Source: an uncultured Candidatus Saccharibacteria bacterium
Lineage (GTDB): Bacteria > Patescibacteriota > Dojkabacteria > SC72
Length of the DNA: 64,000 nucleotides
Assembly: GCA_964536135.1 (NCBI GenBank)
Contig: CAZHVM010000001.1
Coordinates: forward strand, 29,268-93,267
Direction of reading: 5' to 3'
Below, piece after piece: positions 22,198-53,055 of the stretch (within the stretch, counting starts at the first letter, position 1; each line of letters starts with the position of its first letter). The notes beneath the pieces are model-generated. The model was given only the letters and a program-made list of their open reading frames with translations. It ran no database searches and had not been told where the DNA came from. The position numbers and the translations under genes are program-made.

Positions 22198-22691
22198 TTC
22201 TTACTTATCTTTATATTATTCTCCTTACCCCTAGTAAAACTAAGTAATATGTCCACTACATACAAAGCGACTGTGAGTAGCACAGACTTAACACCAGCTA
22301 CCAGAAGCATATTCCCTGTTAAAATTCCCAAATTACCACTAAGGAAAAGTGAGGGTAAAATCAAAATTAAAACAAAGTAAAATGTAATTGCGACAAATTT
22401 GATACCATACCCAATAGCTCCTTCGCTTATATTGAATATAAAAGAGCTTGCAAGCAAAAATAGCAATGGAATACCAACTAGAAGAATATCTATCCCAAGT
22501 GGATAGTGAAATACCACATCAGAAATTAGGGAATATATTACTAGGATTACTGTCAACCATTTAATATCTAACCTTCCCAAAAGCAAGAGAATTAATACAA
22601 AGAAAATTCTAATTCCTAAAGCACTATAAAGGAAACCCTCAGCAAAAAGAGCTCCAATTACCCCTATTGTTATATACAAAATTTTTAACAT
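22188..22691 (-). CDS. mreD: rod shape-determining protein MreD
   Basis: 167-aa polytopic membrane protein between mreC and PBP2; assignment mainly by synteny. Confidence 0.6.
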   Translation of the reverse strand: MLKILYITIGVIGALFAEGFLYSALGIRIFFVLILLLLGRLDIKWLTVILVIYSLISDVVFHYPLGIDILLVGIPLLFLLASSFIFNISEGAIGYGIKFVAITFYFVLILILPSLFLSGNLGILTGNMLLVAGVKSVLLTVALYVVDILLSFTRGKENNIKISKKWN

Positions 22692-22702
22692 TCTTCTTTT
22701 CC

Positions 22703-23530
22703 TTAATTTATTCTTACAAAAACCTTACTTAAAGAGTCATAATCCACTATTGTAGACACAAAGCATGTTCTCGAAATACTTGCAGGATTACTTGAAAGGC
22801 CAACTACATAACCCAAGACTAACATATCTCCTACTGAAGAGTCATTTACAAAGATTATGTCTCCATCACTTATATCTGAATTCATCGTTATATTCTCAAC
22901 CTTTATACCCTCTACTGAGCCATTCATAACACCACGGCTTACTACTTTATTTTTAAGATATCCATCTAGTTCCTTTTCTCCATCATATTTAAGAATACTT
23001 ACACCAAGATATGAATCGTTGCTTGTTGGAAGCTTAATACGAGAGCCAAGCTCATCTGCATACTCCACTATACCTACAAAAAAATTACCAATTACTGCTA
23101 CATCTCCTATTTGAATCCCTGATTTTGTTCCTTCGTCTATTCTTAAGTAATCAATACCGTCATTTTTCAAAACATTTCCCATTACATACTCTCTCTCCTT
23201 GTTTTTTAGACCTAATTGTTTTTTCAATAGCTCGTTTTCTGCCAAAATCTCTAAGTAAGAGGCATCCCCTATCTCGTTTTCTACTATTTGTATCTTTAAT
23301 CTTTCGTTTTCCTCTACTATATTTTTTAAACTGACAAAGTTTTTAAAATAAGAAGATATTCCTTTTCCCAAATTCTCACCTGTCATAAAAATTGGTTCCA
23401 TACTGTAAGAGATTGGATATCTAATGAAATTGGTAACATTTGCCTTATCTAAAATAAGTAGAATTCCACCAAATAATATTACAATTATGGAAAAAATTAG
23501 CTCTTTTTTAAAACTACCCTGAGCATTCAT
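22703..23530 (-). CDS. mreC: rod shape-determining protein MreC
   Basis: N-terminal TM, coiled-coil segment, beta-rich C-terminal domain, located between mreB and mreD. Confidence 0.7.
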   Translation of the reverse strand: MNAQGSFKKELIFSIIVILFGGILLILDKANVTNFIRYPISYSMEPIFMTGENLGKGISSYFKNFVSLKNIVEENERLKIQIVENEIGDASYLEILAENELLKKQLGLKNKEREYVMGNVLKNDGIDYLRIDEGTKSGIQIGDVAVIGNFFVGIVEYADELGSRIKLPTSNDSYLGVSILKYDGEKELDGYLKNKVVSRGVMNGSVEGIKVENITMNSDISDGDIIFVNDSSVGDMLVLGYVVGLSSNPASISRTCFVSTIVDYDSLSKVFVRIN

Positions 23531-23546
23531 TTCTTAAGAGATAATG

Positions 23547-24602
23547 TTAAACAAGCTCTTCCCAAGATTTTTGTATTCTCTCCAACAATTCTATATGGTC
23601 AAGCATTAAAGCTGTTCCTCTAGCTACAGCAGAAAGTGGATCATCTACAATTTTAACTGGAAGATTCAATTCCTGGGAGAAGTATGTATCAATTCCTTTT
23701 ATTAAAGCACCACCACCTGCAAGACGAAGCCCTGATGCAAGTAAATCTTTAAGAAGTTCTGGTGGAGTATCTTCGATTGCGTCTTTTACTCCATCACATA
23801 TCTGGGATATGGAAGACATAATTGCTTCTCTAACCTCAATACTACTTAGTTCTACTGTTCTTGGTAATCCAGTTAGAAGGTCTCTGCCCTGGACACTCAT
23901 CTTTGTTTCTTTTCTTTGGGGTACTGCACTTCCTATGGAGATTTTTACATCCTCAGCACTTCGCTCCCCTATTAATACATTGTATTTCTCTCGAACATAG
24001 TTAATAACGTCCTGGTCCATTTCATCACCTGCAATTCTCATTGTATTATCTACAACAATATCTCCGAGAGAAAAGACTGCAATGTCTGAGGTGCCTCCAC
24101 CGATATCTACAATCATGCTTCCTGAGGCATCTTCTACTGGAAGTCCAGCCCCAATAGCTGCTGCCATAGCCTCTTCGACAATGAATACCTCTCTTGCTCC
24201 CGCCGTTTTTGCAGCATCAAGTACCGCCTGTCTTTCGACTTCGGTTACAGAGGTAGGGACACCAATAATGACTCTTGGTCTTGGAAGTTTAAAGCTTTTA
24301 CCAAAATATCCATGTGCTCTGTGTATGAAATGATGAATCATAGCTTGGGTAGTATCAAAATCAGAAATTACTCCATCTCGTAAAGGTCGCACAGCAGAGA
24401 TATTCGCTGGAGTTCTACCAATCATCTGTCTTGCATCTTTTCCTACAGCAAGGACCATTTTAGTCCTTTTATCTATAGCTACAACGGAAGGCTCGGATAC
24501 AACAATGCCATGGTTTCTCATATATACCATCGTATTTGCCGTTCCTAAATCTATACCTAAATCATAGGTAAAAAATTCTAGTATGGAATTTATCAATTTC
24601 AT
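23547..24602 (-). CDS. mreB: rod shape-determining protein MreB
   Basis: Actin-fold ATPase motifs (GIDLGTANT, EPSVVAID, DIGGGTSD, LAGGGALI); heads the mreBCD-mrdA operon. Confidence 0.9.
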   Translation of the reverse strand: MKLINSILEFFTYDLGIDLGTANTMVYMRNHGIVVSEPSVVAIDKRTKMVLAVGKDARQMIGRTPANISAVRPLRDGVISDFDTTQAMIHHFIHRAHGYFGKSFKLPRPRVIIGVPTSVTEVERQAVLDAAKTAGAREVFIVEEAMAAAIGAGLPVEDASGSMIVDIGGGTSDIAVFSLGDIVVDNTMRIAGDEMDQDVINYVREKYNVLIGERSAEDVKISIGSAVPQRKETKMSVQGRDLLTGLPRTVELSSIEVREAIMSSISQICDGVKDAIEDTPPELLKDLLASGLRLAGGGALIKGIDTYFSQELNLPVKIVDDPLSAVARGTALMLDHIELLERIQKSWEELV

Positions 24603-30794: not shown

Positions 30795-31169
30795 ATGAAG
30801 GGGTTAATAGAGATGAAATCACGGGAAGGAACACTCTTAAAGATAGAAGCAAGAACTTTGTTTGTTAAGGGAGATTATCAGGATCTACTTGTCGTACAGG
30901 ATGAGAATGATAAATTAATTCTCTATTTCGAGACTATTGGCCTTGAAATCCGGTGCGAAAGTAAGAGTAAAAATTTCTCCCGCTATGTAGTATATGAGAA
31001 AGGTGATCCAAGTTTCTCGTTCAATGGCAAACCCTTTGAGCTGGTCGGGTATGACACCTTGGGAAACAATTCTCTTGTCTTAAAGACTAGACTTCTGGAC
31101 TATAAGTTCGCCTTTAAGATTGATACAAAAAACAAGAGACTTCTAAGTGTCGACATACTAATCAGCTAA
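30795..31169 (+). CDS. hypothetical protein (124 aa), inserted between rplA and rplJ
   Basis: Uninterrupted ORF with native AT-rich codon usage; no SD, no recognisable motif; beta-rich composition. Confidence 0.4.
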   Translation: MKGLIEMKSREGTLLKIEARTLFVKGDYQDLLVVQDENDKLILYFETIGLEIRCESKSKNFSRYVVYEKGDPSFSFNGKPFELVGYDTLGNNSLVLKTRLLDYKFAFKIDTKNKRLLSVDILIS

Positions 31170-31401
31170 AAACAATCCACCCTAAAGAAAGACAGAGAGC
31201 GAGCTAATAGTAGCTTGATAGGTGACTTAAGGGCCCATCAGGCTTTTATTTTAATAAATCATCTATTAGCTCCTCTCAGCACCATCCCATTAACATATTT
31301 ACAAACTATCTCCTATAGTATAAAATGTCTAGGCAACAAGCTTACCCAGCTTATTGCTCTTAAAAAACAAACTGAAACACAATCCCTTAAGGAGGGAACA
31401 A

Positions 31402-31683
31402 ATGCTTCAAATCCCTGACCGTAATCACAATCGTAAGAAAAAACATATCGAGGATTGTTCAATTCCCCAGCATGTTAGAAAGCTCATGTCTGACAACGGA
31501 CTTACCTTCCCTGGAAATGGAAAAGTTTCTATCTTTCCCAGTGGGAAGAATTCGATTACAGTCACCATCGAAAATTTTGACGCAAAAGGGAAGTGCAAAA
31601 AGCCGTTTATTAAGGAGATAAATAAGAAATTAAACAAACCTGTCTACCTTAAATTTAAAGATGGCCATTGCACAAATTGTTAA
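31402..31683 (+). CDS. hypothetical small basic Cys-containing protein (93 aa)
   Basis: ATG preceded by AAGGAGG (5-6 nt spacer) and a TTTACA-17 nt-TAAAAT promoter-like element about 75 nt upstream. The track ORF starts earlier (31354) but the SD supports 31402. Five Cys including a C-terminal HCTNC. Confidence 0.5.
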   Translation: MLQIPDRNHNRKKKHIEDCSIPQHVRKLMSDNGLTFPGNGKVSIFPSGKNSITVTIENFDAKGKCKKPFIKEINKKLNKPVYLKFKDGHCTNC

Positions 31684-32881: not shown

Positions 32882-32906
32882 CTATATATTTAAGAATATA
32901 TAACAG

Positions 32907-32933
32907 AGGAGCCACGAAAGTGGCTCTTTTTGT
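32907..32933 (+). terminator. rho-independent terminator after rplL
   Basis: Stem ggagccac/gtggctct with gaaa tetraloop followed by TTTTTGTT. Confidence 0.75.
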
Positions 32934-33019
32934 TATCATTAATTCCCATCGACAAAGCAATATCCAAAGAAGTATAATTATACTGAATCTGCCAATATAT
33001 TAATTTATCAATATATCTA

Positions 33020-33688
33020 ATGGACTACACACCTTTTACTAAATGGGTATTGGACAATGGACTTTCGGAAAGAACATTGGAACTACTCGTAGGAATAGCA
33101 ATAGTTGCTACAATTGTAAGTCTAGCAAGATACCTTTTTGGATCTAAATCATTTGGAATATACGCGCCAGTAATTCTGGCTGTAGCATTTACATATACTG
33201 GACTTAGATACGGGCTAATCATTACTGCCGTTGTTATTGCATCATCCCTACTCTCTCACCTCATACTAAGTAAAATTAGAATGCATTATATATCTAGAAT
33301 TGCAATTAATTACTGCATTATAATAATGTCACTACTCGTTTTCTTCGTAGTAGTAAAAAAATATAACTTAGGGCTACCAAACATGTCTTTAATACAACCG
33401 CTAGCAATAATTTCCATAATTGGACTCTCCGATTTCTTTGTTAAACAACAAATTAAAAAAGGCTTAAAAAACTCCATCCTCGTACTCGCAAGCACACTCA
33501 TCATAGCCTCTTTGGGTTGGTTCATCATAACAAGGGAAACTATTTCAGCCTTCATGATTAACAACCTCTGGATAATCCCTGCCTTAATTGTCGTTAATAT
33601 ATTAATCGGACAATTTTCTGGCCTTAGATTTAAAGACCTTTTGAGATTTAGAACCATTATCCAAGATAAAGAAAATGTTAAAAAGTAA
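33020..33688 (+). CDS. polytopic membrane protein (6-7 TM), first gene of the ATP-grasp cluster
   Basis: 222 aa, almost entirely hydrophobic helices; stop overlaps the start of the downstream RimK-related ligase by 14 nt (translational coupling). Could correspond to the 7TM partner described for RimK-related ligase systems, but this is not verifiable here. Confidence 0.55.
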   Translation: MDYTPFTKWVLDNGLSERTLELLVGIAIVATIVSLARYLFGSKSFGIYAPVILAVAFTYTGLRYGLIITAVVIASSLLSHLILSKIRMHYISRIAINYCIIIMSLLVFFVVVKKYNLGLPNMSLIQPLAIISIIGLSDFFVKQQIKKGLKNSILVLASTLIIASLGWFIITRETISAFMINNLWIIPALIVVNILIGQFSGLRFKDLLRFRTIIQDKENVKK

Positions 33689-35135
33689 GAAGATAAAAGA
33701 AATATTGGGATTAAATAGACGAAACCAAGAATATGTTCGTCCCTTAAATTCCCCCTCATCCAAAAGGATTGCAGACAACAAAATCCTTACAAAGAAAGTC
33801 CTCGCAAGGGAAAATATTAATACTCCTGAAGTTTACAAACTAATTAGAACGAAAAAACAGCTCCAATTCCTAGACTTTGAATCCTTACCAAACAGTTTTG
33901 TCATAAAACCAAACCAAGGGACAGGTGGTAACGGTATCGTAGTACTCTACGGTAAGAAAAAAGGTCAAACAGCCTGGATTAGACCAAGCGGAGAGATAAT
34001 GACCGCAAGGGACATTACAGTACACATAGAGAATATAATCGAAGGAAGATACTCCATGGGCTCTAGAAAAGATATCGCAATCATAGAGGAAAGAGTCAAA
34101 ACGGATCCATTTCTCAAACAATATTCCTACAAAGGAGTCCCAGATATCAGGATAATTGGATACAACCAAGTTCCAATAATGGCAATGATGAGACTTCCAA
34201 CAAAGAAATCAAACGGTACAGCAAACCTACATTCAGGAGCAATATGTACTGGTATAGATATCAGCTCTGGTATAACAACCTACTCTATGCACATGCAAGA
34301 AAAAAGTCTCGTAAGTGACTCGTATGAAATGATAGATTCTACACTAGATTTGAAAGAAAACAGGAAACTCTCAGGGATCCAAATTCCTTACTGGGAGGAG
34401 ATATTGGAGATAGCTGTTAAATGCCAAAAAGCTAGCAAATTAGGATACATAGGAGTAGATATAGCCCTAGATGCAGAGAAAGGGCCCGTTGTTTTTGAAC
34501 TAAATGCTAGACCAGGCCTTGGTATACAGGTAGCAAACCAAGCAGGATTAAGATGGAGACTTGAGAAAGTTAAAGGTATTGAAATTAAAAGTATGAAGCA
34601 CGGTATAAGAGTAGCAAAAAATCTCTTCGGAGGAGAAGTTGAAGAAAGTATTGAAGCTATTAGTGGAAGAAAAGTTGTAAATATTAACGAAAAAATCTTT
34701 CTCTACTATAAGACACCTGTCTCTAAGAAGAAGAATGACCCTCAAAATCGTGAAGCTATAAGAGTATTTGTAGATACAGGCCTAATAACATCCCGTATAA
34801 ACAAAACTCTCGCTTCTAGGATAGGCTTTTTCGAAGCAATTAAATATTTCTACTCCCTCTCTATCCCCAAAAAGTTTGAAAGCTTCAAAGAGGCTCAAGA
34901 ATATATAGATTCTAACCAATCCACCATTATAGGACACCCAGATATCCTAAGAGTCGCCAAAATCGTAGAAGAGGGTGCCATAAAGACAAGACCAGTCATA
35001 TGTGTACATACAAAAATAGCCAGTGAGGAGAAAGAAATAGAGATGGTGGTAACAGAAGATACCACATATAATGTAGTAATAGGAAGAAATGAACTTAAAG
35101 GATACTTAATAGATACATCTAAAACATTTAAATAG
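33675..35135 (+). CDS. RimK-related alpha-L-glutamate-ligase-like ATP-grasp protein with about 150-aa C-terminal extension
   Basis: N-terminal GLNRRNQEYVRPLN...DNKILTKKVLARENINTPEVY region resembles the RimK-related (alpha-L-glutamate ligase-like) family. Central ATP-grasp features (FVIKPNQGTGGNGIVV, DIRIIGYNQVPIMAMMR, GVDIALDAEKGPVVFELNARPG). Confidence 0.65.
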   Translation: MLKSKKIKEILGLNRRNQEYVRPLNSPSSKRIADNKILTKKVLARENINTPEVYKLIRTKKQLQFLDFESLPNSFVIKPNQGTGGNGIVVLYGKKKGQTAWIRPSGEIMTARDITVHIENIIEGRYSMGSRKDIAIIEERVKTDPFLKQYSYKGVPDIRIIGYNQVPIMAMMRLPTKKSNGTANLHSGAICTGIDISSGITTYSMHMQEKSLVSDSYEMIDSTLDLKENRKLSGIQIPYWEEILEIAVKCQKASKLGYIGVDIALDAEKGPVVFELNARPGLGIQVANQAGLRWRLEKVKGIEIKSMKHGIRVAKNLFGGEVEESIEAISGRKVVNINEKIFLYYKTPVSKKKNDPQNREAIRVFVDTGLITSRINKTLASRIGFFEAIKYFYSLSIPKKFESFKEAQEYIDSNQSTIIGHPDILRVAKIVEEGAIKTRPVICVHTKIASEEKEIEMVVTEDTTYNVVIGRNELKGYLIDTSKTFK

Positions 35136-35136
35136 T

Positions 35137-36129
35137 ATGACAAAATATGAAGAATATTTAAAAGAAGCAGGAAATGTACATTTGGCTTACTACCTTGAAG
35201 CTGCAGATGAGCTTGGTATTGAGTACGAGATTGTTGTACGTAGCCTACTCGCTAGATTTACATACCAAGATAAACACTGGTTCATAATCAATACAGTAAC
35301 TCCGCTTACCCCATCCCCAGGAACTACCATTGCAAAAAGAAAATATCTTACAAATCTGGTGCTTAGCAGAGCAGATATAGATGTACCTAGACAACAAGCA
35401 CTTGGAAGTGCCATAGATGCAATCAAATTCTTTAACAAATACAAGAATGTTGTCATTAAACCATCTCAACAGTTAGGTGGTATTGGTGTCACCATGCTCC
35501 CAGAGACTGAAGAGCAGGTTATCGAGGCATACGAAGGTGCATTACAAAAAAGTAATGCAAAAGGAGCAGTAAAAGTACTAGGTGAAGAGTTCATAAAAGG
35601 AGAAAATTACAGATTCCTAGTAGTTGGAGATCAAGTGGTAGGAATAGTATGGAGAAAGGCACCAATAGTTATTGGTGATAGTAAAAACACTATAAGGGAA
35701 CTGATTGATATTAAGAATAAAGAGCGAAGAATGCTCGTATTAAAGCCTATTCCCATCGACACAGAAGTTGAGATAAGACTTCGAAACCAGGATCTTACAT
35801 TGGACTCAATTCCAGAAGAAGGCAAAGAGGTTGTTCTTAGATACAACTGTAACCTAACCACTGGTGGAACTACAGAAGAATGCTCTTCCATAGTTGACCC
35901 ATACTACAAACAACTTGCAGTTTCCGCCGTCAAAGAACTTGGCCTTGAATTTGGGGGTGTAGATATCATTGCACAGGACATTACAAAACAAGATAAGTGT
36001 GGAATTAACGAAATAAACTACAATCCGGGCCTTAGATTACATTACAAGGTAAACAAAGGGCAAATTGTAAGAGTAGCGATTCCAATAATGGAGTATATTA
36101 GAGATAAATATATAAATTCAATCAAATAA
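35137..36129 (+). CDS. cyanophycin-synthetase-like ATP-grasp (G-domain only) amide ligase
   Basis: Strong resemblance to the CphA ATP-grasp module: VVIKPSQQLGGIGVTM, ENYRFLVVGDQVVGIVWRKAPIVIGDSKNTIRELIDIKNKERR, TTGGTTEE, GGVDIIAQDITK, EINYNPGLRLH. No N-domain and no Mur-ligase (M) domain. Confidence 0.7.
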   Translation: MTKYEEYLKEAGNVHLAYYLEAADELGIEYEIVVRSLLARFTYQDKHWFIINTVTPLTPSPGTTIAKRKYLTNLVLSRADIDVPRQQALGSAIDAIKFFNKYKNVVIKPSQQLGGIGVTMLPETEEQVIEAYEGALQKSNAKGAVKVLGEEFIKGENYRFLVVGDQVVGIVWRKAPIVIGDSKNTIRELIDIKNKERRMLVLKPIPIDTEVEIRLRNQDLTLDSIPEEGKEVVLRYNCNLTTGGTTEECSSIVDPYYKQLAVSAVKELGLEFGGVDIIAQDITKQDKCGINEINYNPGLRLHYKVNKGQIVRVAIPIMEYIRDKYINSIK

Positions 36130-36131
36130 AT

Positions 36132-37802
36132 ATGGTCAAAGTAATACAAGGATTAAATCTAGAGAACAAAACTTCCATTATCGAGATTAATACAATTAAG
36201 ACAGATAATTTAGAGAAAATTCTCCGATTAATACACTCCTTTCATCCAATATTCTTCGAAGAATATAAATATGAAGAAAATACACTCAAGATATACTCTA
36301 ATCTGCCCTTCCTTTGGGAAGAGCTAGGTAAAGTACTGGAGCAGGATTTAATATATGACAAAGCATTAGAACAATGCCTAGAGATTATTAGAATTCGAGT
36401 TTCCTCAATGTCCACCATACCCCTACTCTTTGCAGCACATAAACTTGGCTATGAAACAACCCCAACAATGGCTGGGAAAGAACCTTTGTCTTACACACCC
36501 TCTTTTAACCGTCACTACACAATAGGATGTGGAAAAGGCTCAGAAATAATCTACTCCATCTCCTCTTCCAAAGATTCTAAGATTGCGAAAGAGATTCAAA
36601 GAGACAAATGGTCAAGCAACCTTGTTATAGAGAAATTAGGCTTGCCTCTTCCAGCATGGGAAATTATAGATTCGTTCACAGAGATAGAAGAAATTTGGAG
36701 ACATTTTAACAAACCAGTAGTTATCAAACCAACTGGTCTAACAGGAGGAAGCGGTGTTTCAGTAGGAATTAAAACAATCGAAGAGGCAAAAGAAGCGTAT
36801 AAATATGCAAAGGAAATGGTAGATGCTAAACTTAGAAAAGATTGGCAAACCAAGGTAATGATACAGGAACAAGTAAGCGGAGAAGATTACAGGATCCTTG
36901 TTATAGATGGCCATTTAGAAGTAGTGACGAAGAGAATACCTGCATTTGTAATTGGAAACGGTAAAGATACAATAACAAGACTCATAGAAAACACAAACAA
37001 AGATCCAAGAAGGGATACAACAAGCCCAGCACATACATTAAAACCAATTGAAATAGATCAACCCTTAAAAGCATATCTTAAAGAACAAAACCTTGAACTA
37101 GATTCCATCCCAGACAAAGACCAAAAAGTACCAGTTAGAAAGGTTGCAAGCATGAGCCAAGGCGGTATAACTGAAGACTTTACAGATAAAGTTGCCCCTG
37201 AAATTAAAAGCATCGTAGAAAGCATAGCTACCTCTATCCATGCCTTTGCACTAGGTGTAGATGTAATGTGTAAAGATATCTCCAAGCCTTTAACAAAAGA
37301 CAATGGAGCCATACTTGAGATTAATACCATGCCAGAGGCATACCTTAACCTCTTCCCAGTCATAGGCACAGATCGAGGATATGTTGCAGATACATATATT
37401 AAAAAGCTTCTTACAAACAACAAAACAAAGAAGATTGTAGTAATAGGAAATCCTCAGTATGACATCCCTACAACATTGAAACAGAAGAAACTCTTGTCTT
37501 CCTATTTACGAAATGAAAATACCGTAGGAGAATACAAAGATGGAGAAATAAGAATAAACTCCTTAACATTAAACAAAGATTTAACAAAAAGACAGGGTGT
37601 AGAAGCACTTAAACTTAACGCTTCTCTAGATGCAATTATAATTCACCACAGAAATTGGGAAGAAGTAATAAAAGATGGTTTAGGATTAAACAAAATAGAC
37701 CTACTCATGATTGAATCTTCCCTGAAGGAGAACACAGAGTATATGAAAATAATAAAAAGATACAAACGAAAAGGATTAATATCTAAAATTAAAACATTCT
37801 AG
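36132..37802 (+). CDS. cyanophycin-synthetase-like protein: CphA N-domain + ATP-grasp G-domain, Mur-ligase M-domain degenerate/truncated
   Basis: ATP-grasp block aligns closely with CphA (VVIKPTGLTGGSGVSVG, EDYRILVIDGHLEVVTKRIPAFVIGNGKDTITRLIENTNKDPRRD, VDVMCKDISKPL). Where CphA has the M-domain P-loop GTNGKTT this protein has IVVIGNPQYDIPTT and ends about 130 aa later. Confidence 0.7.
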   Translation: MVKVIQGLNLENKTSIIEINTIKTDNLEKILRLIHSFHPIFFEEYKYEENTLKIYSNLPFLWEELGKVLEQDLIYDKALEQCLEIIRIRVSSMSTIPLLFAAHKLGYETTPTMAGKEPLSYTPSFNRHYTIGCGKGSEIIYSISSSKDSKIAKEIQRDKWSSNLVIEKLGLPLPAWEIIDSFTEIEEIWRHFNKPVVIKPTGLTGGSGVSVGIKTIEEAKEAYKYAKEMVDAKLRKDWQTKVMIQEQVSGEDYRILVIDGHLEVVTKRIPAFVIGNGKDTITRLIENTNKDPRRDTTSPAHTLKPIEIDQPLKAYLKEQNLELDSIPDKDQKVPVRKVASMSQGGITEDFTDKVAPEIKSIVESIATSIHAFALGVDVMCKDISKPLTKDNGAILEINTMPEAYLNLFPVIGTDRGYVADTYIKKLLTNNKTKKIVVIGNPQYDIPTTLKQKKLLSSYLRNENTVGEYKDGEIRINSLTLNKDLTKRQGVEALKLNASLDAIIIHHRNWEEVIKDGLGLNKIDLLMIESSLKENTEYMKIIKRYKRKGLISKIKTF

Positions 37803-37804
37803 CA

Positions 37805-38749
37805 ATGAAATATCTAGTAATCGACAAAAGACAGAGAGTGAAAGAAATGGAAATACCTACCGCTTCTTCTAGGATATTGGAGGAGTTAAAAAAGAAAGAT
37901 ATACCAGCAGATTTCGTTTACAACGATGAGATAGAGATGCTTTTCATGGCAGGTTCCACGCAGATTAAAGCAAAGGGAATAGACGTAAAGGAGTACACGC
38001 ACATCATTTTTAGAGGTCATGCACTTCACAACGATAGGGAGTATGCACTAAAAAGATACATCATAGACTACATTGAGCAATATAATAGTGACAACCCAGA
38101 AAAAAAAGTGCTCATACAAAATTCCAAAGCAATTAAGAAATTGCCATATTATAATAAGGTAGCCATTTCTTTACTTTGTTCACAATATAACCTCCCCTAC
38201 TTTCAGACATATTACAGAACAGATGGTAAATATCTAGAGCCTAGAGATATGCTAAAAGAATATCCTTTAATAATCAAAGAGTATGCTGGAATCAATAGAG
38301 TCGAGATAATAGATGGAGAGGAGAAGATTAAAAAAAATGTTTACAAATTAGAAAAAGATGAAGATTTTAAACAAGAGGGATTAAAGGAGCAAGATTTAAG
38401 TAGCTTCTTCTTACAAGAATTTTCCAATACCGCAGAGGATTACAGAATATTTGTTAAATTAGGTAGGGTTGTTGGTGGATGGAAAAGGACTGCATCTAAG
38501 GGGTTTATGACAGTAAATAAGGGAATCTATGAAATGTATAATAATCCCGATAAAGAAATCACAGCTATTGCAGAAAAGATGGCTTCTGTATTAGAGGCCG
38601 ATTTTATAGCTGTAGATTTTATGTATATGAATGGAAAGCCTTGTATACAGGAAATAAGCTTACATCCAGGATTTAAAGCTTATGAGACTAAGATAGAAGG
38701 AGAACCTGTTAACATAGCAGAAGCTATAATAACTGCATTTTCAGATTAG
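37805..38749 (+). CDS. RimK-like ATP-grasp ligase (fourth ATP-grasp gene of the cluster)
   Basis: C-terminal half shows the RimK-type pattern DYRIFVKLGRVVGGWKRTASKGFMTVNKG...ADFIAVDFMYMNGKPCIQEISLHPGFKAYE; 314 aa. Confidence 0.6.
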   Translation: MKYLVIDKRQRVKEMEIPTASSRILEELKKKDIPADFVYNDEIEMLFMAGSTQIKAKGIDVKEYTHIIFRGHALHNDREYALKRYIIDYIEQYNSDNPEKKVLIQNSKAIKKLPYYNKVAISLLCSQYNLPYFQTYYRTDGKYLEPRDMLKEYPLIIKEYAGINRVEIIDGEEKIKKNVYKLEKDEDFKQEGLKEQDLSSFFLQEFSNTAEDYRIFVKLGRVVGGWKRTASKGFMTVNKGIYEMYNNPDKEITAIAEKMASVLEADFIAVDFMYMNGKPCIQEISLHPGFKAYETKIEGEPVNIAEAIITAFSD

Positions 38750-39909
38750 ATTCCTGCCTTTATAAATATCTCCATCCAGTCACTCTTAGTTGGAATCTTA
38801 CCTGCTTTAGGTATTAATCCCTCATCCACCCATTCGCACTGCTTAAAACTAATTTTCCCCGAATATAATTTCTGATACAAAGTAGAATCCTCTTCTAATT
38901 TCTTCATTACTTTTCTTAATCCTCTGAAATAAACAACATCCTTTGCATAAATACCAGGATATGAAGTGTCCGACAAACCTCTCTTCACCCTATATGCTAT
39001 ATCAAAGGCCCCTAGTTTAGAGAAATTACCCAAAAGTACATTGTAAAGCTGTCTAAATGACAGCTCCTCTCCGACATATATAGCCCATGCTAAACCTGCT
39101 TTATTTTTTAGTGATTTCTCAGGTAAAAGACCCATATTATTCTCATTCCATGAAGCTAATCCCTCCTCTATATCTAAATAGCTTGCAAGATTTGGTTTAC
39201 TTATAGCCTCAAATCCACTCTTTTGGCCATAGTACGAACGAAGAGCATGAGTGCCTACCTCATGTATCAAAGTCTTTCTAAGTTGAAATCTACTCTTACT
39301 AATATTTCCATCCACAAGTACTTCCTTCCTCTTAACCCCTACTTTAACTCCATTCTTAGCGATATTTAAAGACTTATTTACAGACCAACCCTCCAGCCCT
39401 AATTCTTTAAATACAACATTAAAAACAGAAACTATTCTGTCATACCCCAACATTTCTGGATCTTTCTCGTTATCTTCCTTTGCCAAATTATATTTCCCAT
39501 ATTTGCCTCGCAGGACTCTAGCTGAATTTCTAAAAAGCTTAGCCGAAGGTTTACCATACCTAGCGACAGAGATATCTGTTACTGCTTCATTGTTCCCTAC
39601 TGCATGCATAAGATCACTTGCTTCTCTCTTTGAATCTATAAGATCTATGTAAAAATTCGAAATCCTTGGATCTACATCTGAGATCTCTTTTACAGCTGAA
39701 AGTTCTTTAAGAATTTCTCTGTTTTTGTTTTTTACTATCCTATATTGAAATTGAGGCTCATATGTCTCTGAAGCAAAAAACTTTTTCTTCTCTGAATTCA
39801 AATTGGTTGGAGTAAATACTAATGCAATTGGAATTTTTAACTCTCCAAGGAGCTTTGTTACTTCCCCCACTTTCATAGTTTTCTTGGCTTTTCTAAAGAA
39901 TATATTCAT
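38746..39909 (-). CDS. HExxH zincin-like predicted peptidase, DUF1704/QEGLA-motif family-like
   Basis: HEVGTHALR (HExxH) followed about 45 aa later by DIEEGLASW (QEGLA-like motif). This family is reported next to RimK-related ATP-grasp genes. Convergent with, and overlapping by 4 nt, the last ATP-grasp gene. Confidence 0.55.
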   Translation of the reverse strand: MNIFFRKAKKTMKVGEVTKLLGELKIPIALVFTPTNLNSEKKKFFASETYEPQFQYRIVKNKNREILKELSAVKEISDVDPRISNFYIDLIDSKREASDLMHAVGNNEAVTDISVARYGKPSAKLFRNSARVLRGKYGKYNLAKEDNEKDPEMLGYDRIVSVFNVVFKELGLEGWSVNKSLNIAKNGVKVGVKRKEVLVDGNISKSRFQLRKTLIHEVGTHALRSYYGQKSGFEAISKPNLASYLDIEEGLASWNENNMGLLPEKSLKNKAGLAWAIYVGEELSFRQLYNVLLGNFSKLGAFDIAYRVKRGLSDTSYPGIYAKDVVYFRGLRKVMKKLEEDSTLYQKLYSGKISFKQCEWVDEGLIPKAGKIPTKSDWMEIFIKAGI

Positions 39910-39943: not shown

Positions 39944-40963
39944 CTATCTTCTAAACTCTCGGTTAAAGGTAAACTTTCTATCTCCTGCTGCAAGAAGTTC
40001 CAGAGCTATACCCGTGCCTTTTGCTACACAAAATGCTGGATCATCTGCTACATGAGATGGAACACCTGTTGCTTTAGTGAAAAGTCTGTCTAGATTTCGC
40101 AACATTGCCGTACCACCACTCATTACCATACCTCTGTCAATAATGTCTGCAGAAAGTTCTGGTGGAGTTTTCTCCAAAACTGATTGTATACTCTTTATGA
40201 TACTTCTAAGAGGTCTTTCTACTGCTTTGGCTATATCGTTTGAGTCTACAACAATGGATTTTGGCATACCTGCGCCAACATCTCTACCTCTTACTTCCAT
40301 TTCTTTTGGATCTTTTACTTCAAGTGCTGAACCAATCTTAATCTTTACTCTCTCTGCCGTCTGTTCCCCAATTAAAAGACCTTTCTTTTTTCTCATATAC
40401 ATAATGATTGCTTCATTTATGGCATCTCCTGCTACTCGTAGAGAATCGTATTCTACAATTCCGTCTAATGACATAACTGCTACCTCTGTTGTTCCACCAC
40501 CCATATTTATAATCATGTTACCTGAAGATGTATGAATTGGAAGCTCTGCTCCAAGTGCAGCAAGAAGTGGCTCTGGCATAAGGGTTATCTCTTTAGCTCC
40601 CACAGCATTTGCAGCCTTAAGAACAGCTCTTTCTTCCACAGAAGTAATTCCGGCAGGTACGCTTATTACCACATCTGGTTTAAAGAACCTAGATTTACCA
40701 AGTGCCTTATCAAAGAAAAATCTTAGTAATGCTTCAGTCACTCTAGAATCTGCTATAACTCCATTTCTAAGTGGTCTTTTAGCAACAATATTCTCGGGGG
40801 TTTTTCCAATCATTTCTTTAGCTTCGTTACCTACTGCTACTACAGTAAATTTGTTCACATCTATAGCAACAACTGTTGGTTCTACAAATACTATACCCTC
40901 CCCCTGAACAAAAACCACAGAGTTTGCAGTACCTAAATCAATACCTAATTTCTTTGCAAACAT
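39944..40963 (-). CDS. MreB-like actin homolog, second copy
   Basis: Actin-fold motifs GIDLGTANSVVFV, EPTVVAID, NMGGGTTEVAV, MSGGTAMLRNLD; 339 aa. Paralog of the mreB in the mreBCD operon. Confidence 0.8.
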   Translation of the reverse strand: MFAKKLGIDLGTANSVVFVQGEGIVFVEPTVVAIDVNKFTVVAVGNEAKEMIGKTPENIVAKRPLRNGVIADSRVTEALLRFFFDKALGKSRFFKPDVVISVPAGITSVEERAVLKAANAVGAKEITLMPEPLLAALGAELPIHTSSGNMIINMGGGTTEVAVMSLDGIVEYDSLRVAGDAINEAIIMYMRKKKGLLIGEQTAERVKIKIGSALEVKDPKEMEVRGRDVGAGMPKSIVVDSNDIAKAVERPLRSIIKSIQSVLEKTPPELSADIIDRGMVMSGGTAMLRNLDRLFTKATGVPSHVADDPAFCVAKGTGIALELLAAGDRKFTFNREFRR

Positions 40964-40981
40964 AATAATTCAATATTATAA

Positions 40982-41962
40982 CTAGAATCCCATAGCTTCT
41001 AAAACTCTTGCCTCTGTCTCAGATGCTACTCGTTGGGCGTTTTTCTCTCCACTTTCCAAGAGATCGTAAATATATTCATCCCCTTTCCTATCTATTTCTG
41101 CTCTCTTTGCTCTAATTGGTTCCAAGAATGTTTCTATTGCGTTGAACAGTTTTGTCTTTACCTCTACATCACCAACGTTACCTTTTTTATACCTCTCTTT
41201 CAAATCTAAAATCTCTTCTTTATTTGGATTAAAGTAATCATGGTATATAAACACGGGATTTCCGTCCACTTCGCCAGGATCATTAGGATGTATTCTGTTT
41301 GGATCTGTGTACATAGACATAACCTTTTTCCTTACTGTCTCTGTATCGTCCGTAAAATATATGCCTCCTGTAGATTTTCCACTTTTCCCCTGCCCATCAA
41401 GACCAACCACGATATCTCCAATTAACCCCTTTGGTACATTGAAAACTTTCCCATATAAAGAATTAAAACTTAAAGCCAAATCATGAGCAATCTCAACATT
41501 CGCTTCGTTATCCTTCCCAACAGGAACAAGATCTGCATTCATTATTAAAATATCTGAAGCCATTAAAACAGGATATCCCATCAATCCATAAGTAAGCTTA
41601 TAGCCTAAGCCGAGCTTTTCTTTTAACATTGGCTGTCTTTCTAACTCAGGCATTTTAATTAACATTGAAAGAATAGTATTCAATCTATAGATCTGAGGAA
41701 TACGAGATTGTCTATAAAAAGTAATAACCTTCAGATCTAGTCCAAGGCTTAAATAAGTCCTCATCAAATTTAAGGTGTTTTGCTTTATCTCAGACACATT
41801 ATCGAAATGTGTCGTCAAGGCGTGATAGTCAGCAATAAAAATAAAGCTGTCAAAATCGTACTGCCTATCTATTCTATTTTTCAGGGTACCTACATATGCA
41901 GCAATTGGGAAAGTCCCTCCTGTCGCCCTGTCCCCTGTTAAAATTCTTTTCTTATCATTCAT
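40982..41962 (-). CDS. trpS: tryptophanyl-tRNA synthetase with degenerate HIGH-type motif
   Basis: Aligns with bacterial TrpRS (MASDILIMNADLVPVGKDNEANVEIAHDLALSFNSLYG vs [37 protein letters not shown]). KMSKS position reads KSGKS. The TIGN/HIGH position reads FPIAA. Confidence 0.75.
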   Translation of the reverse strand: MNDKKRILTGDRATGGTFPIAAYVGTLKNRIDRQYDFDSFIFIADYHALTTHFDNVSEIKQNTLNLMRTYLSLGLDLKVITFYRQSRIPQIYRLNTILSMLIKMPELERQPMLKEKLGLGYKLTYGLMGYPVLMASDILIMNADLVPVGKDNEANVEIAHDLALSFNSLYGKVFNVPKGLIGDIVVGLDGQGKSGKSTGGIYFTDDTETVRKKVMSMYTDPNRIHPNDPGEVDGNPVFIYHDYFNPNKEEILDLKERYKKGNVGDVEVKTKLFNAIETFLEPIRAKRAEIDRKGDEYIYDLLESGEKNAQRVASETEARVLEAMGF

Positions 41963-46746: not shown

Positions 46747-46995
46747 TTAGTACGATACTGAAAACACCCATTCTTCCTTACTTTCTTTTCCACAGATAAT
46801 ACACTTGCCCGAGGAGCCGACACCCTCTTTTGTGAGACATCTGGTGGTAGCCTTGGTTTCACTCTTAATCTTCTCCTCACACTCATTGTTACCACACCAA
46901 TGTGCTAGTACAAATCCCTTTTCATTGCTTAGGACACTCTTTAGCTCTTCATATGACCCTACTCTATGGGTTTTTGATACTAACCACAGCTTAAA
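46747..46995 (-). pseudogene. remnant of prolyl-tRNA synthetase C-terminal zinc-binding domain (no start codon)
   Basis: Minus-strand frame translates to ...GSYEELKSVLSNEKGFVLAHWCGNNECEEKIKSETKATTRCLTKEGVGSSGKCIICGKESKEEWVFSVSY*. Matches the archaeal/eukaryote-type ProRS C-terminal domain (AHWCG..ECE.KIK..T.AT.R......C..CGK......FA.SY end). Upstream frame runs into a stop with no Met. Coordinates approximate. Confidence 0.55.
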
Positions 46996-48364
46996 CTATC
47001 TTTCCCTCAAAGCCCCAATGCTGCGCAGCTTTGGCAAGTGCAGAATCTGGATTTTGGAGTATCCACTCATCTATTTTTCCTCTGCCCAACGCAATATCTT
47101 TGGCCTGCACTACCGCTTCTACACCAGCCTCTATACCCCATGGATGTCCTAACACTCCACCACCACACTGTATGATTATGTCCTCACCAAGTTGTTTAAT
47201 TGACTCATCAATAGTGCCTGGATGAAGACCACCAGAAGCTACATGCCATACTGGCTTCATGCCATACCAATTCTGCCCTAGTGTCATTGAACTTGCTGGC
47301 GTTACATCTAACTGTAATGTGTCTCTAATCAATTTTGGCTCTCCATAGTTTTCCATCTTAGTTTTTGGAGCACCACCATGTATTGAATCCACACCTAAAA
47401 GACGCATTAGCTTAGCAATAACTACCATAGACATTGAGAAATCAGCAATAAAGCCTTTGTCATATACTCCAGCACCAGAATCCCTATCAAAAAGACCATG
47501 CATAGCCCTATGTGCATGTATAGCCAATCCAGGATTTTTCAATCTCATTGTATGAACAGCAGAAAATCCAGTAACAACGACATCCAACATCATCCATCTT
47601 CCACCCTGTGCCTTTATACGATCTGTTCTCTCAATCATTGTATCAAAGTTAGAATGAGTAACATTACAAAGGTAGAACTTCTTTTTCCCAGATTTCTTCT
47701 CAATATCTCTTTGAACAGCATGTACAAGATCGCATCTGTCTTCAAATTTGTTAAAAAACAAGCTTGTTAGGTTCTCATCATCCTTAATCCCATGGTAATC
47801 ACCATTTGCAGCAGTAAACAGTACCTTTGCTAATTCGGCCTGCTCTTTGGCTGTTCTACCAACTTTTGGCTTAGGTACAGTACAAAGCAAAGGTCCCTCT
47901 TCCAGTTGCATTTGCTCCCTTACTCCACTGATACCAAACTGTGGACCAGGGAAAGATTGCACAATGGCTTTAGGAAATCGAACATCTAGACATCTAAAAG
48001 CTTTAAGCATCTTCATTCCATCTATATTCCCAACTATACCTGCTAGAAGACCAGACATATTTCCAAGCTCAAAAAGTTCTTTTTTGTAGGCTATCTTGAA
48101 TGTTTTTGTCTTTGGCTCAAGATCAAAAGCTATCGCTTTCATTTTGTCAGCCATCTTTACACCTGAGTTTTTTCCAGAATACACACCAGTCCACGTACCA
48201 GTAGAACTCTCAGCTGCACATGCAGCAGCTACATCCTCAAATTTATCCATACCGATACCATCGGCAAGCTCGATATCTAAAAAGGATATTATGTAGTCCT
48301 CATCGGGATTTTTTGGCTTCCATCCCTTAGGAGCAACATATGATGAATGATTTGAACTAAACAT
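46991..48364 (-). CDS. RuBisCO large subunit, form II/III-like
   Basis: Catalytic signatures present: PKPKVG (KPKLG-type), GDYHGIKDDENL (GxDFxKDDE with the carbamylated Lys), HAHRAMHG, GGGVLGHPWG; 457 aa. Confidence 0.85.
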   Translation of the reverse strand: MFSSNHSSYVAPKGWKPKNPDEDYIISFLDIELADGIGMDKFEDVAAACAAESSTGTWTGVYSGKNSGVKMADKMKAIAFDLEPKTKTFKIAYKKELFELGNMSGLLAGIVGNIDGMKMLKAFRCLDVRFPKAIVQSFPGPQFGISGVREQMQLEEGPLLCTVPKPKVGRTAKEQAELAKVLFTAANGDYHGIKDDENLTSLFFNKFEDRCDLVHAVQRDIEKKSGKKKFYLCNVTHSNFDTMIERTDRIKAQGGRWMMLDVVVTGFSAVHTMRLKNPGLAIHAHRAMHGLFDRDSGAGVYDKGFIADFSMSMVVIAKLMRLLGVDSIHGGAPKTKMENYGEPKLIRDTLQLDVTPASSMTLGQNWYGMKPVWHVASGGLHPGTIDESIKQLGEDIIIQCGGGVLGHPWGIEAGVEAVVQAKDIALGRGKIDEWILQNPDSALAKAAQHWGFEGKIV

Positions 48365-52242: not shown

Positions 52243-53055
52243 TTATTCTAATTCAAATACAATATTCCCCTCCTCATATGTTATTAAATATTGCACATTA
52301 AGCTTTTTAAACATTTCCAATGTTTCATTGTGTGGATGACCGAATTTGTTCCCTTCACCAACCGAACAGATGGCTATCTCAGGTTCTACTGAATTGAGAA
52401 ACATCTCTGAGGAAGCAGTCCTTGAGCAATGATGACCAGCCTTGAGTATATCTACATCCCCAACATCATCAGAAATCTTCTCCTCCACCTCCTTTTCAGC
52501 ATCCCCCGTTAGCAGGATTCTCTTTCCGCCCACTTCTACATCCAAAACAACAGATTCATTGTTAATATTTTCCTCACACTTTGCTTCTACAGGATATATT
52601 ACCGACATCAAGATTTTTCCATACTTCAGCTTGGTTAAAGTATCCACTTTTACAAGTTTCTCTGCGTATTCTTCGAGCATAAACTTGTAAGAAGAAGTAT
52701 CCGTACATGACGGTGAATACCAGATACTATCTACGCTATAATTTTCCAGCACCATCAACAAGCCCCTCAGATGATCATCGTGTGCATGCGTCAATACAAC
52801 TACCTCGATATTTCTATCATACATAGGTATATATTTTGCAAGCTCATATAAAACAGCGTCATCTGGACCTCCATCAACTAAAATTTGAAAATTATCCTGC
52901 TGAATTAAGATTGCATCTCCCTGCCCAACATCAAGGAAAACGGCTACAGGCCCATCACTATGTTTGTTATACTGCATGAAAGTAGCAATTATAACAAAAA
53001 GAACTATAACCCAGTTTTTAAGAATAAATTTTAAGATAGTAATTAGAATCTTCAC
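52243..53055 (-). CDS. comEC: ComEC C-terminal metallo-beta-lactamase domain (separate ORF)
   Basis: MBL-fold motif VVLTHAHDDHLRGL and downstream Asp/His ligands; N-terminal TM helix; overlaps the upstream ComEC channel ORF by 38 nt in another frame. Confidence 0.75.
   Translation of the reverse strand: MKILITILKFILKNWVIVLFVIIATFMQYNKHSDGPVAVFLDVGQGDAILIQQDNFQILVDGGPDDAVLYELAKYIPMYDRNIEVVVLTHAHDDHLRGLLMVLENYSVDSIWYSPSCTDTSSYKFMLEEYAEKLVKVDTLTKLKYGKILMSVIYPVEAKCEENINNESVVLDVEVGGKRILLTGDAEKEVEEKISDDVGDVDILKAGHHCSRTASSEMFLNSVEPEIAICSVGEGNKFGHPHNETLEMFKKLNVQYLITYEEGNIVFELE

Follow-up and report, generated by a model that had tools for sequence, protein, structure and literature searches.

Several described systems resemble parts of the locus reported here. 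RloABC of Pseudomonas aeruginosa (PA1768-PA1766) consists of a secreted retropepsin (RloA), a seven-transmembrane (7TM) protein whose transglutaminase domain is inactive (RloB) and an ATP-grasp ligase (RloC), and the Rlo system has been linked to antibiotic tolerance and biofilm in Pseudomonas (bioRxiv 10.1101/2025.03.18.643919). RloA, which has a positively charged channel, cuts poly-Glu in vitro, and the defects of a protease-less mutant are suppressed when rloB or rloC is lost (bioRxiv 10.1101/2025.03.18.643919). This suppression suggests that RloBC make something that needs trimming. In a second pairing of ligase and retropepsin, RimK adds alpha-Glu to the C-terminal end of ribosomal protein S6 and RimB trims it (bioRxiv 10.1101/2025.03.18.643919). 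The G domains of cyanophycin synthetases (CphA) phosphorylate the C-terminal backbone carboxylate of their substrate and then add Asp (PMC9427784), and CphA2, which has the layout N-G-truncated-M, polymerises beta-Asp-Arg dipeptides with its G domain alone (PMC10273328). Enzymes of the MATCAP/TMCP family have carboxypeptidase activity, with which they trim acidic tails at the C-terminus, and they serve as deglutamylases too (PMC10499314). Here we describe a block of six genes, g1 to g6 (33020-39909), in a 64,000-nucleotide (nt) stretch of a Dojkabacteria (WS6, Patescibacteria) contig (CAZHVM010000001.1), the whole of which we call the window. Relatives of all of these enzymes are encoded side by side in this block. 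We propose, with about even confidence, that they function as a single system: a modular 'write-and-trim' machine, associated with the membrane, for a peptide chain made without the ribosome.

A preliminary description of this DNA had reported a tightly packed block of a 7TM-like membrane protein, four ATP-grasp ligases, of which the second and third were CphA-like and the fourth RimK-like, and a convergent peptidase. Our check of the open reading frames (ORFs) found all six at its coordinates, and Pfam and NCBIfam profiles agree with these families. On the plus strand, g1 (33020-33688, 222 amino acids (aa)) encodes a 7TM_transglut membrane protein (PF14402, 4.6e-17), g2 (33675-35135) an RloC-type ATP-grasp ligase fused to a RimB/RloA-type retropepsin (PF14397, TIGR02291, PF05618), g3 (35137-36129, 330 aa) a stand-alone CphA G-domain ligase (NF010623, 9e-60), g4 (36132-37802, 556 aa) a CphA2-like ligase (cyanophycin synthetase profile, 5e-73; best fold match 7ta5) and g5 (37805-38749, 314 aa) a divergent RimK-family ATP-grasp ligase (Pfam RimK, 9e-8). 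On the minus strand, g6 (38746-39909, 387 aa) encodes a MATCAP/QEGLA-family zinc carboxypeptidase (PF08014, 8e-25). The first two genes overlap by 14 nt, the following gaps measure 1, 2 and 2 nt, and g5 and g6 overlap convergently by 4 nt. All four ligases match ATP-grasp profiles and have intact catalytic residues; g3 and g4 share 33% identity, and the remaining ligases are no close paralogues of one another. None of the six proteins reaches a curated equivalog threshold in NCBIfam. An analysis of transmembrane (TM) and signal segments identified g1 as the only membrane-embedded protein of the block, and all of the enzymes appear, as judged from sequence, to be cytoplasmic. Upstream of g1, a terminator-like hairpin lies 3' of rplL (32905..32930, +; an 11-bp stem with five GC pairs, then a T-run) and would set the ribosomal-protein operon apart from the ligase operon. 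It is followed by a sigma-70-like promoter candidate for g1-g5 (32949..32978, +; TCGACA-18-TATAAT, 11/12 positions, by consensus match only) that sits 42 nt 5' of the g1 start.

The gene order g1-g6 proved to be identical in 80/80 species-level Dojkabacteria loci, in each case within the syntenic stretch rplA-rplJ-rplL-g1-g2-g3-g4-g5-g6(-)-mreB(-)-(trpS)-PEGA. Median gaps along g1-g5 were -14, 6.5, 9 and 2 nt (about 60-70 species; g1/g2 from 63), and g2 may be translationally coupled to g1. Because the whole region is syntenic, Dojkabacteria alone give an ambiguous answer to the question of whether the block is a single system. The six genes could share no common function and be neighbors merely through regional conservation, which runs unbroken from rplA to the PEGA-domain gene and includes the unrelated trpS. 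A scan of contigs with specific patterns returned only Dojkabacteria, and more distant relatives were reached through a search of cluster representatives; among these, the contigs of P0386 and P0256 were too short to be informative on context.

A sister clade, whose proteins are 30-45% identical to those of the window (59-62% for L12), is decisive on this point. In locus L090 the order is g1-g2-g3-g5-MATCAP(-)-g4, and L085-L087 have the same order plus two inserted genes, so that all six genes are present in L085-L087 and L090; L088 carries g3, g5, MATCAP(-) and g4 before its contig ends. The right flank is different in the sister clade, with no mreB nearby, and rplJ-rplL is inverted. We take the block to be one system because the gene set survives this rearrangement, and the placement of the MATCAP gene inside the rearranged cluster bears out the earlier assignment of the peptidase to the system. 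In both the Dojkabacteria and the sister-clade loci, g5 always adjoins g6, convergently. The overlapping or near-abutting reading frames are themselves conserved, and, as set out below, many other contigs contain the pair of 7TM and fusion genes together with MATCAP and these ligase types in varying sets. The arrangement is far beyond chance; neighborhood without common function is largely refuted, and we regard it as highly improbable.

We then looked beyond these clades with a metagenome scan anchored on the fusion protein encoded by g2, which returned at least 481 relatives, of which the best 80 loci were analysed. A 7TM gene lies directly 5' of the fusion gene in 61/65 metagenome loci. Partners were tallied with tblastn queries in the 40 loci with at least 5 kb downstream: 15/40 had the core alone, a class that may hide partners too divergent to be detected, and in 25/40 the core was directly followed by one to three extra co-directional genes. 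These 25 partner sets consisted of a RimK-type ligase only (7 loci), G-type plus RimK-type (4), CphA-type (3), G-type (2), g4-type (2), MATCAP (2), RimK plus MATCAP (1), CphA plus G plus RimK (2), CphA plus G (1) and CphA plus MurC plus RimK (1). MATCAP is co-directional just 3' of the core in L100, L148, L156 (the shorter locus) and L162; HExxxH...EEG(L/M)A is kept in L100, L156 and L162, and the catalytic motif had no match in L148. In L091, a relative that is a G domain only lies in a cluster, placed between ruvC and ruvA, that encodes a PKD-PKD-7TM_transglut protein, an RloC::retropepsin fusion and two ligases of the G type. Several loci with fewer ligases, for example L164 and L165, share the slot between rplL and mreB. 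The Dojkabacteria block is thus the fullest version seen of a modular family with a core of 7TM protein and RloC::retropepsin fusion, accessory ligases and sometimes MATCAP.

The rplJ-rplL pair stands directly beside the 7TM gene even when inverted (L085, 1615-2658; L090, 3508-4455), and L12 adjoins the 7TM/fusion core in L155, L161, L164, L165, L169 and L172. Either an ancestral slot for insertion lies behind this adjacency, or it hints at a connection with the ribosomal stalk. Insertions in or beside the block were found at L074 9007-9984, L075 11655-13887, L035 4883-7516, L070 15036-16379, L008 13436-17216 and L027 5565-6716. In some Dojkabacteria the rplL-g1 interval holds a helix-turn-helix protein with a GT28/MGDG-synthase-like gene, the g3-g4 interval a C45/AAT-family N-terminal nucleophile (NTN) hydrolase, the g4-g5 interval a family 4 glycosyltransferase (GT4) with an alpha/beta hydrolase or an AAA_14/DUF4143 ATPase, the g5-g6 interval a 7TM histidine kinase or, in L001 and L009, an HD-domain gene, and the g6-mreB2 interval Wzy_C.

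The core pair, g1 and g2, is where the block most resembles RloABC. The same three families are present (7TM_transglut, an ATPgrasp_ST ligase resembling TIGR02291 and a PF05618 retropepsin), and the genes for membrane protein and ligase are tightly linked, here by the 14-nt overlap. At 222 aa, g1 has six clear TM segments and one probable one and covers positions 311-508 of the 508-position RloB profile NF052267, which correspond to the TM half of RloB; the inactive transglutaminase-like ectodomain of RloB is lacking. The ligase domain of g2 (aa 15-300, nt 33717-34574, +) matches PF14397 ATPgrasp_ST (4e-69) and the alpha-L-glutamate-ligase-like profile TIGR02291 (4e-85), its best NCBIfam match, at 285.6 bits, below the curated cut-off of 314.2. 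Motifs and conservation across the family show that its catalytic residues are kept. The preliminary description had recognized this RimK-related, alpha-L-Glu-ligase-like domain and had overlooked the retropepsin fused to its C-terminus (aa ~333-483, nt 34671-35123, +).

The identity of this second domain emerged only from several analyses together. On its own, the g2 C-terminus gave aspartyl-protease matches in Pfam at E ~0.1 only, and a profile of it searched against the PDB had 9g58/9g59 as top matches at a marginal E of ~0.06. Across the family, 16/36 g2 orthologues match PF05618, the RimB/RloA 'Zn_protease' retropepsin family, with a best E of 6.8e-5. The last ~150 residues contain the family-invariant strings F-M-D-T-G-x-x-T-S-R-I and v-I-G-R-x-x-L-x-G-Y-L-I-D-T-S, corresponding in the window to the catalytic DTG (nt 34773-34781, +), whose D367 and T368 are invariant, and to VIGRNELKGYLIDTS (nt 35076-35120, +). 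A full-length AlphaFold2 (AF2) model built with homologues (predicted local distance difference test (pLDDT) score, 78) matches phage acid-protease, PF05618-type and retropepsin structures (E to 9e-7, target TM-score 0.53-0.65). The family-wide Pfam counts and the fold search, which included viral structures, settle the identity of the domain as a retropepsin. We found no hydrophobic or signal segment in g2, so the protease should be cytoplasmic and not secreted. Thus, g2 is an RloC-like ligase and a RimB/RloA-like protease on one chain, whereas in RloABC the retropepsin is separate and secreted and the membrane protein has an ectodomain. The block further differs from RloABC in adding three ligases and a MATCAP, and in its host, a member of the candidate phyla radiation (CPR) and not a Gammaproteobacterium.

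For the two CphA-like ligases, we mapped residues by pairwise alignment to TeCphA1, whose residue roles include binding of the incoming Asp (PMC9427784), and to StCphA2, with 75-78 orthologues per family. Both g3 and g4 align to cyanophycin synthetase profiles and to CphA structures, as the preliminary description had anticipated, and like CphA1 G domains both keep the ATP-binding lysines, the equivalent of the catalytic Arg309 and the Mg ligands, which suggests that both should be active. g3 corresponds to positions 166-471 of the 871-position profile (NF010623) and aligns with CphA1 7lgn at 3e-31; it is a G domain without an N domain or an M domain. The equivalents of TeCphA1 N394, R323, G456 and R458 are conserved across 75 orthologues and in the sister clade, and the aspartate pocket of CphA1 is thereby complete in g3, with its motifs at NCNLTTGG (nt 35845-35868, +) and NEINYNPGLRLH (the NYNPGLRLHYK region; nt 36007-36042, +). 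By this likeness, g3 probably adds Asp to a C-terminal carboxylate.

The domain organization of g4 is that of CphA2. Its match spans profile positions 186-567 of 871, and it consists of a CphA-type N domain (aa 1-128, nt 36132-36515, +), an active-type G domain (aa 129-430, nt 36516-37421, +) and a vestigial M domain (aa 431-556, nt 37422-37799, +). The preliminary description had correctly noted that GNPQYDI (nt 37446-37466, +) stands where CphA1 has the M-domain P-loop GTNGKTT and that the M domain is truncated, and had missed both the N domain and the CphA2-like architecture. In a Foldseek search with the AF2 model (pLDDT 88), the top match was Gloeothece CphA2 (7ta5; E 9e-40, TM-score 0.71/0.68 over ~600 columns), which outranks all CphA1 structures. 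The catalytic K159, K199, R254, R268, D377, E396 and N398 are invariant. The pocket is not that of g3: over 78 sequences, N394 is replaced by Ser340 (100%), G456 by Glu402 (100%) and R458 by Tyr404 (99%), within the motifs ASMSQGG (nt 37146-37166, +) and EINTMPEAYLN (nt 37317-37349, +), so that of the N394/R323/R458 set that recognizes Asp only R268 is kept; the His267 equivalent is Gly/Ala. The sister clade retains the Ser/Glu/Tyr pocket of g4 as well as the Asp pocket of g3. When we searched for the signature RKxAS[MV]SQGG plus ExNxxPExYLN in the 150 best cluster representatives of 1.84 billion, it was limited, among the 70 proteins shorter than 700 aa that were checked, to the g4 family and the sister clade. 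Since this pocket is invariantly Ser340/Glu402/Tyr404, g4 would extend the chain with a different nucleophile and would join something other than Asp. CphA2 has Tyr/Phe at the R458 position (PGVYMH in StCphA2), as g4 has Tyr404, and g4 may likewise join pre-formed units.

The kinship of g3 and g4 with CphA1 and CphA2 naturally raises the possibility that the product is canonical cyanophycin, poly-Asp with Arg side chains, with g5 or g2 supplying the lost M function in trans. The Asp pocket kept in g3 is in keeping with this, and a true CphA1, its Mur-ligase domain active, does occur in a related uncultivated genome, which also has an S51 cyanophycinase-type gene and a RimK-like ligase. These genes form a canonical-looking cluster in a low-GC metagenome contig (L094, 7001-12463). 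Its CphA1 comes as two proteins, one of 671 aa (N, ATP-grasp, Mur_ligase_M) and one of 199 aa (Mur_ligase_C); a C26 peptidase accompanies the S51 cyanophycinase-family gene and the RimK-like ligase, and the cluster occupies the slot between ruvC and ruvAB where L091 has its three-ligase cluster. In the block, however, the acidic residue that binds Arg (TeCphA1 Glu215, StCphA2 Asp212) is variable in g4 (K25/E21/N11 over the 78 sequences) and a conserved Thr in g3, and because neither family keeps it canonical cyanophycin is unlikely. The beta-Asp-Arg site of StCphA2, which comprises the mutagenesis-supported D362, R389, N393 and S395 plus D212, is only partly present in g4, which keeps D309, R336 and S342 but has the invariant Ser340 in place of N393 and no conserved D212 equivalent. 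There is no active M domain, that of g4 having lost its P-loop and ending at 556 aa, and g3 and g4 score 200.6 and 239.5 bits against the TIGR02068 cut-off of 850. Within the six genes we found no S51 cyanophycinase; in its place, degradation would fall to a retropepsin and a carboxypeptidase of the MATCAP type, and the host is a member of the Dojkabacteria, whereas CphA2 occurs with CphA1 and cyanophycinase in cyanobacteria. g4 is also only 21-23% identical to CphA2 (7ta5, 8fxh) or CphA1 in structural alignment. Neither g3 nor g4 seems built for an Arg-decorated chain, and we rate the cyanophycin explanation as very unlikely, as the preliminary description had also judged.

The fourth ligase, g5, is recognizably RimK-like (Pfam RimK, 9e-8; rimK_fam, 1.4e-13; MptN, 5e-12; PDB RimK 7qyr, E 0.008). 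Only the Pfam RimK domain passes its threshold: against TIGR00768 (cut-off 143.4 bits) g5 scores 50.9 and g2 57.4, and against PRK10446 (cut-off 331) g2 scores 22.7 bits and g5 has no match. Its metal-ligand motif, QEISLHPG (nt 38648-38671, +), reads E-x-S in Dojkabacteria and the canonical E-x-N in the sister clade. The block resembles RimK-RimB in pairing an ATP-grasp ligase with a retropepsin of the kind that removes acidic residues, both cytoplasmic, g5 being of the RimK family and the g2 domain RimB-like. It differs in the distance of g5 and g2 from the RimK equivalog cut-offs, in its obligatory 7TM protein and CphA-type ligases, and in having no evident S6-type acceptor; rpsF, the gene for S6, was not identified in the window.

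The peptidase g6 clears the gathering cut-off of PF08014, the MATCAP/DUF1704 family, with 88 bits against 27, and matches the QEGLA profile TIGR02421 (7e-34) with 117.8 bits, below its equivalog cut-off of 338.65. The EEGLA motif (aa 248-252, nt 39154-39168, -) had been noted in the preliminary description; its zinc motif is HExxxH (HEVGTH, aa 216-221, nt 39247-39264, -) and not HExxH as first given, and the MATCAP identity had escaped notice. Both motifs are conserved in the family and align, with an N-terminal PTN...KFF...Y.PQF, to human MATCAP (7z5g, 3e-14). No signal peptide was found in g6. The block shares with the TTL/TTLL-MATCAP (TMCP1/2) and FGase-QEGLA/GshB-type pairs the combination of a ligase acting on a C-terminal carboxylate and an HExxxH...EEGLA metallocarboxypeptidase that removes the added residues; in the block, the substrate would not be tubulin. 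Proteobacterial QEGLA proteins adjoin a GshB-type ATP-grasp gene, as in Pararhizobium, and we rejected g5 as an orthologue of that ligase by sequence comparison. The Vibrio QEGLA protein combines FGase and MATCAP, and that of Pararhizobium has a ~275-aa N-terminal extension without a Pfam match and adjoins a separate FGase gene, whereas g6 has no FGase region.

Beside g6 lies mreB2 (39944..40963, -), a second MreB paralogue that we treat as context outside the system. Its product is 43% identical to MreB1 (23547-24602, -); MreB1 heads an mreB-mreC-(mreD)-PBP2 operon and MreB2 stands alone. The gap to g6 is 35 nt in the window (median 18 nt across 58 species), a promoter-like site lies upstream of mreB2 (41003-40975), and we found no terminator between mreB2 and g6 in the window sequence. 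An actin-like MreB2 adjoining a homologue of a tubulin-tail carboxypeptidase is curious; the MreB2 C-terminus is non-acidic and the adjacency is lost in the sister clade. The neighboring gene on the other side of mreB2 encodes a 326-aa tryptophanyl-tRNA synthetase (TrpRS; 40982-41962, -), and archaeal-type TrpRS/TyrRS occur in some CPR bacteria according to one report (PMC5370408).

Taken together, these assignments suggest a mechanism; in it, what each ligase uses as substrate, the sequence in which the enzymes act, the product's chemistry and the part played by g1 are our inference. The ATP-grasp ligases would extend a peptide chain stepwise at its C-terminal carboxylate, a proposal made because the relatives of these enzymes converge on acidic C-terminal chemistry. 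In this scheme g3 would add Asp, g4 would add a different unit, possibly a pre-formed peptide as CphA2 does, and g5, and probably g2, would add Glu-type residues. The g2 retropepsin and g6 would cut the chain back from the C-terminal end, thereby controlling its length or turnover, and g1 would tether or export the product. An Asp/Glu polymer or a protein tail had been proposed in the preliminary description, and the aspartate pocket of g3 together with the family assignments points in that direction. In our view the most likely product, at about even confidence, is an acidic Asp/Glu-rich oligomer or polymer, free or exported, not attached to a protein and distinct from Arg-decorated cyanophycin.

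An attached product would mean a protein C-terminal tail 'code', in which the ligases write Glu/Asp and another residue on one protein and the retropepsin and MATCAP erase them; candidate targets are a ribosomal stalk protein, MreB2 or some protein whose gene lies elsewhere. The relatives of g5/g2 and of g6 that have been characterised best are RimK/RimB and TTL/MATCAP, respectively, weak TTL matches in Pfam occur in 16/36 g2 orthologues, and the g2 model matches viral TTL-family structures. The stalk genes also stay beside g1 when inverted in the sister clade, with L12 beside the core in the six other metagenome loci named above, and g6 and mreB2 are co-directional and 35 nt apart. Yet the strong terminator and separate promoter-like site between rplL and g1 speak against a tail, as does the loss of the mreB adjacency in the sister clade. 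L12 and MreB2 have C-termini that lack both acidity and conservation, and none of the ORFs of the window ends in an acidic tail; a search for an acceptor protein or precursor peptide in cis found none, the rplL-g1 spacer holding only the terminator and the promoter-like site. A free or exported chain is favored over a tail by this lack of an acceptor-like C-terminus nearby, by the CphA-type polymerase architecture of g4, since CphA-family enzymes with an N domain polymerise a free polymer, and by the universally coupled 7TM partner, whose relatives have PKD (L091) or transglutaminase-like (RloB) ectodomains that point to the membrane or the exterior. It is further favored by the differences in ligase complement between lineages, which would be unusual for a housekeeping protein mark. 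We therefore see the protein tail as possible but rather doubtful.

The run of four different ligases in succession also resembles stepwise assembly of the kind carried out by MurC-F, and each could add one residue to a short defined peptide or a peptide-decorated small molecule, such as an osmolyte or glutathione-like peptide, amino acids attached to a cell-surface glycan or lipid, or an alternative cell-wall peptide. The G domains are near the C-terminal ligase of GshAB (3ln7) and the N-acetylglutaminylglutamine synthetase profile as well, the Pfam name of the g2 family is 'sugar-transfer associated', some Dojkabacteria have GT4, GT28-like and Wzy_C insertions within or next to the block, and the phenotypes of Rlo in Pseudomonas concern the envelope. 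Against this, the glycosyltransferase insertions occur sporadically and lie on the opposite strand, g4 retains the whole CphA2 polymerase architecture including the N domain, and two peptidases trimming a C-terminus suit the control of chain length better than a fixed product. The window has an elongasome operon (20197-24602, -) with MreB (PF06723), MreC (PF04085), a probable MreD (22188-22691) and a class B penicillin-binding protein (PBP_dimer plus Transpeptidase), so that ordinary peptidoglycan cross-linking is encoded. With this normal mreBC-PBP2 operon in place, the Mur ligases are probably not replaced and the system would not substitute for peptidoglycan synthesis; an alternative cell wall is unlikely on the same grounds. 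On balance, the short-peptide explanation is unlikely. We also considered and rejected an anti-phage defence system, as none of the six proteins had a PADLOC match.

Several points weigh against the free acidic chain that we favor. All of the substrate assignments are drawn from homology, and our literature and structure searches found neither a solved structure nor a known product for the RloC/ATPgrasp_ST family. RimK/RimB and TTL/MATCAP, which are among the closest precedents, are protein-tail systems. g5 of Dojkabacteria has E-x-S where the E-x-N metal ligand is usual, and in these bacteria g6 appears, from its position and spacing, to be co-transcribed with mreB2, apart from g1-g5. The accessory ligases may be dispensable for some basic function because 15 of the 40 tallied loci have the core alone. 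Finally, although g2 and g6 are strongly basic in every lineage (median net charges +19 and +16), as g4 and g5 also are in the sister clade, net charge carries little weight when the proteome is AT-rich and Lys-rich. The observations on which the favored scheme draws are the domain identities, the intact catalytic residues, the pocket residues, the operon packing and the conservation of the gene set through rearrangement. More specifically, and tentatively, the product could be a new Arg-free polyamide related to cyanophycin, with an Asp/Glu backbone that is perhaps branched, in which g3 would supply Asp, g4 would join units and g5/g2 would add Glu-type residues. It would be handled via the 7TM protein, its length would be controlled by the two peptidases, and it would be a core component of Dojkabacteria.

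Other ligase assemblies and features came to light alongside the block. Six proteins of 1,467-1,965 aa (P0253, P0255, P0257, P0258, P0260 and P0263) combine two or three ATP-grasp modules of CphA-G-like type with fused acylphosphatase, PGA_cap (CapA), AMP-binding, LPG_synthase_C or YheCD domains; multi-ligase megaenzymes by their appearance, they seem not to have been characterised. Elsewhere in the window, a homologue of the RuBisCO large subunit (46991-48364, -) has RuBisCO_large_N and the catalytic domain; genes of this sort typify the form II/III or III-like enzymes that have been reported from CPR bacteria. A 2,204-aa protein (56009-62623, -), probably a giant protein of the cell surface or of adhesion, contains a Gly-rich domain and five Laminin_G_3 (ConA-like lectin) repeats, and comEC (53018-54676) lies near its gene. 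Between rplA and rplJ are two small plus-strand ORFs (30795-31169, 124 aa; 31354-31683, 109 aa), and the syntenic contig L001 has small unannotated genes at the same position.

The preliminary description had known of no described system with this gene combination. Our literature search likewise found no description of the six-gene cluster, of a CphA-like enzyme with a non-cyanophycin product or of an RloC product, and the published survey of cyanophycin genes covered complete RefSeq genomes with CphA1 queries only. The statement holds for the six-gene set in the literature searched and falls short for its parts, since the core is an RloABC-type module that has been studied genetically in Pseudomonas and pairs of ATP-grasp and QEGLA genes occur in Proteobacteria. 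Work by Iyer, Abhiman, Burroughs and Aravind (Mol BioSyst, 2009) is said to have linked RimK-like ATP-grasps, 7TM-transglutaminase proteins and retropepsin-like and other peptidases into predicted peptide-synthesis or tagging systems. It is reportedly the source of the Pfam families ATPgrasp_ST and 7TM_transglut and, although said to predate CPR genomes, may have predicted parts of the core. The block is accordingly a new variant on RloABC, RimK/RimB, CphA2 and the ligase/MATCAP pairs, and not a one-off.

Three lines of research that have run apart meet in the block: the Rlo system, polymerases of the cyanophycin type and MATCAP-type carboxypeptidases, the last of these known so far from the tubulin code. 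Compact and soluble except for g1, it is convenient for reconstitution in vitro, which could reveal the product of the RloC family and a bacterial role for MATCAP. The g4 family, a CphA2-like polymerase with a different invariant pocket, is a candidate source of a new biopolymer. If a new polyamide is indeed made, the variable ligase sets of related bacteria would give rise to lineage-specific polymer compositions, and the finding would show what is produced by the RloBC-type core of Pseudomonas and Vibrio. The genomes of CPR bacteria are very small and their biosynthetic capacity is slight. Given that every sampled Dojkabacteria genome spends ~7 kb on the block, its product is probably important to these organisms, whether in the envelope, in storing scavenged amino acids or in regulation.

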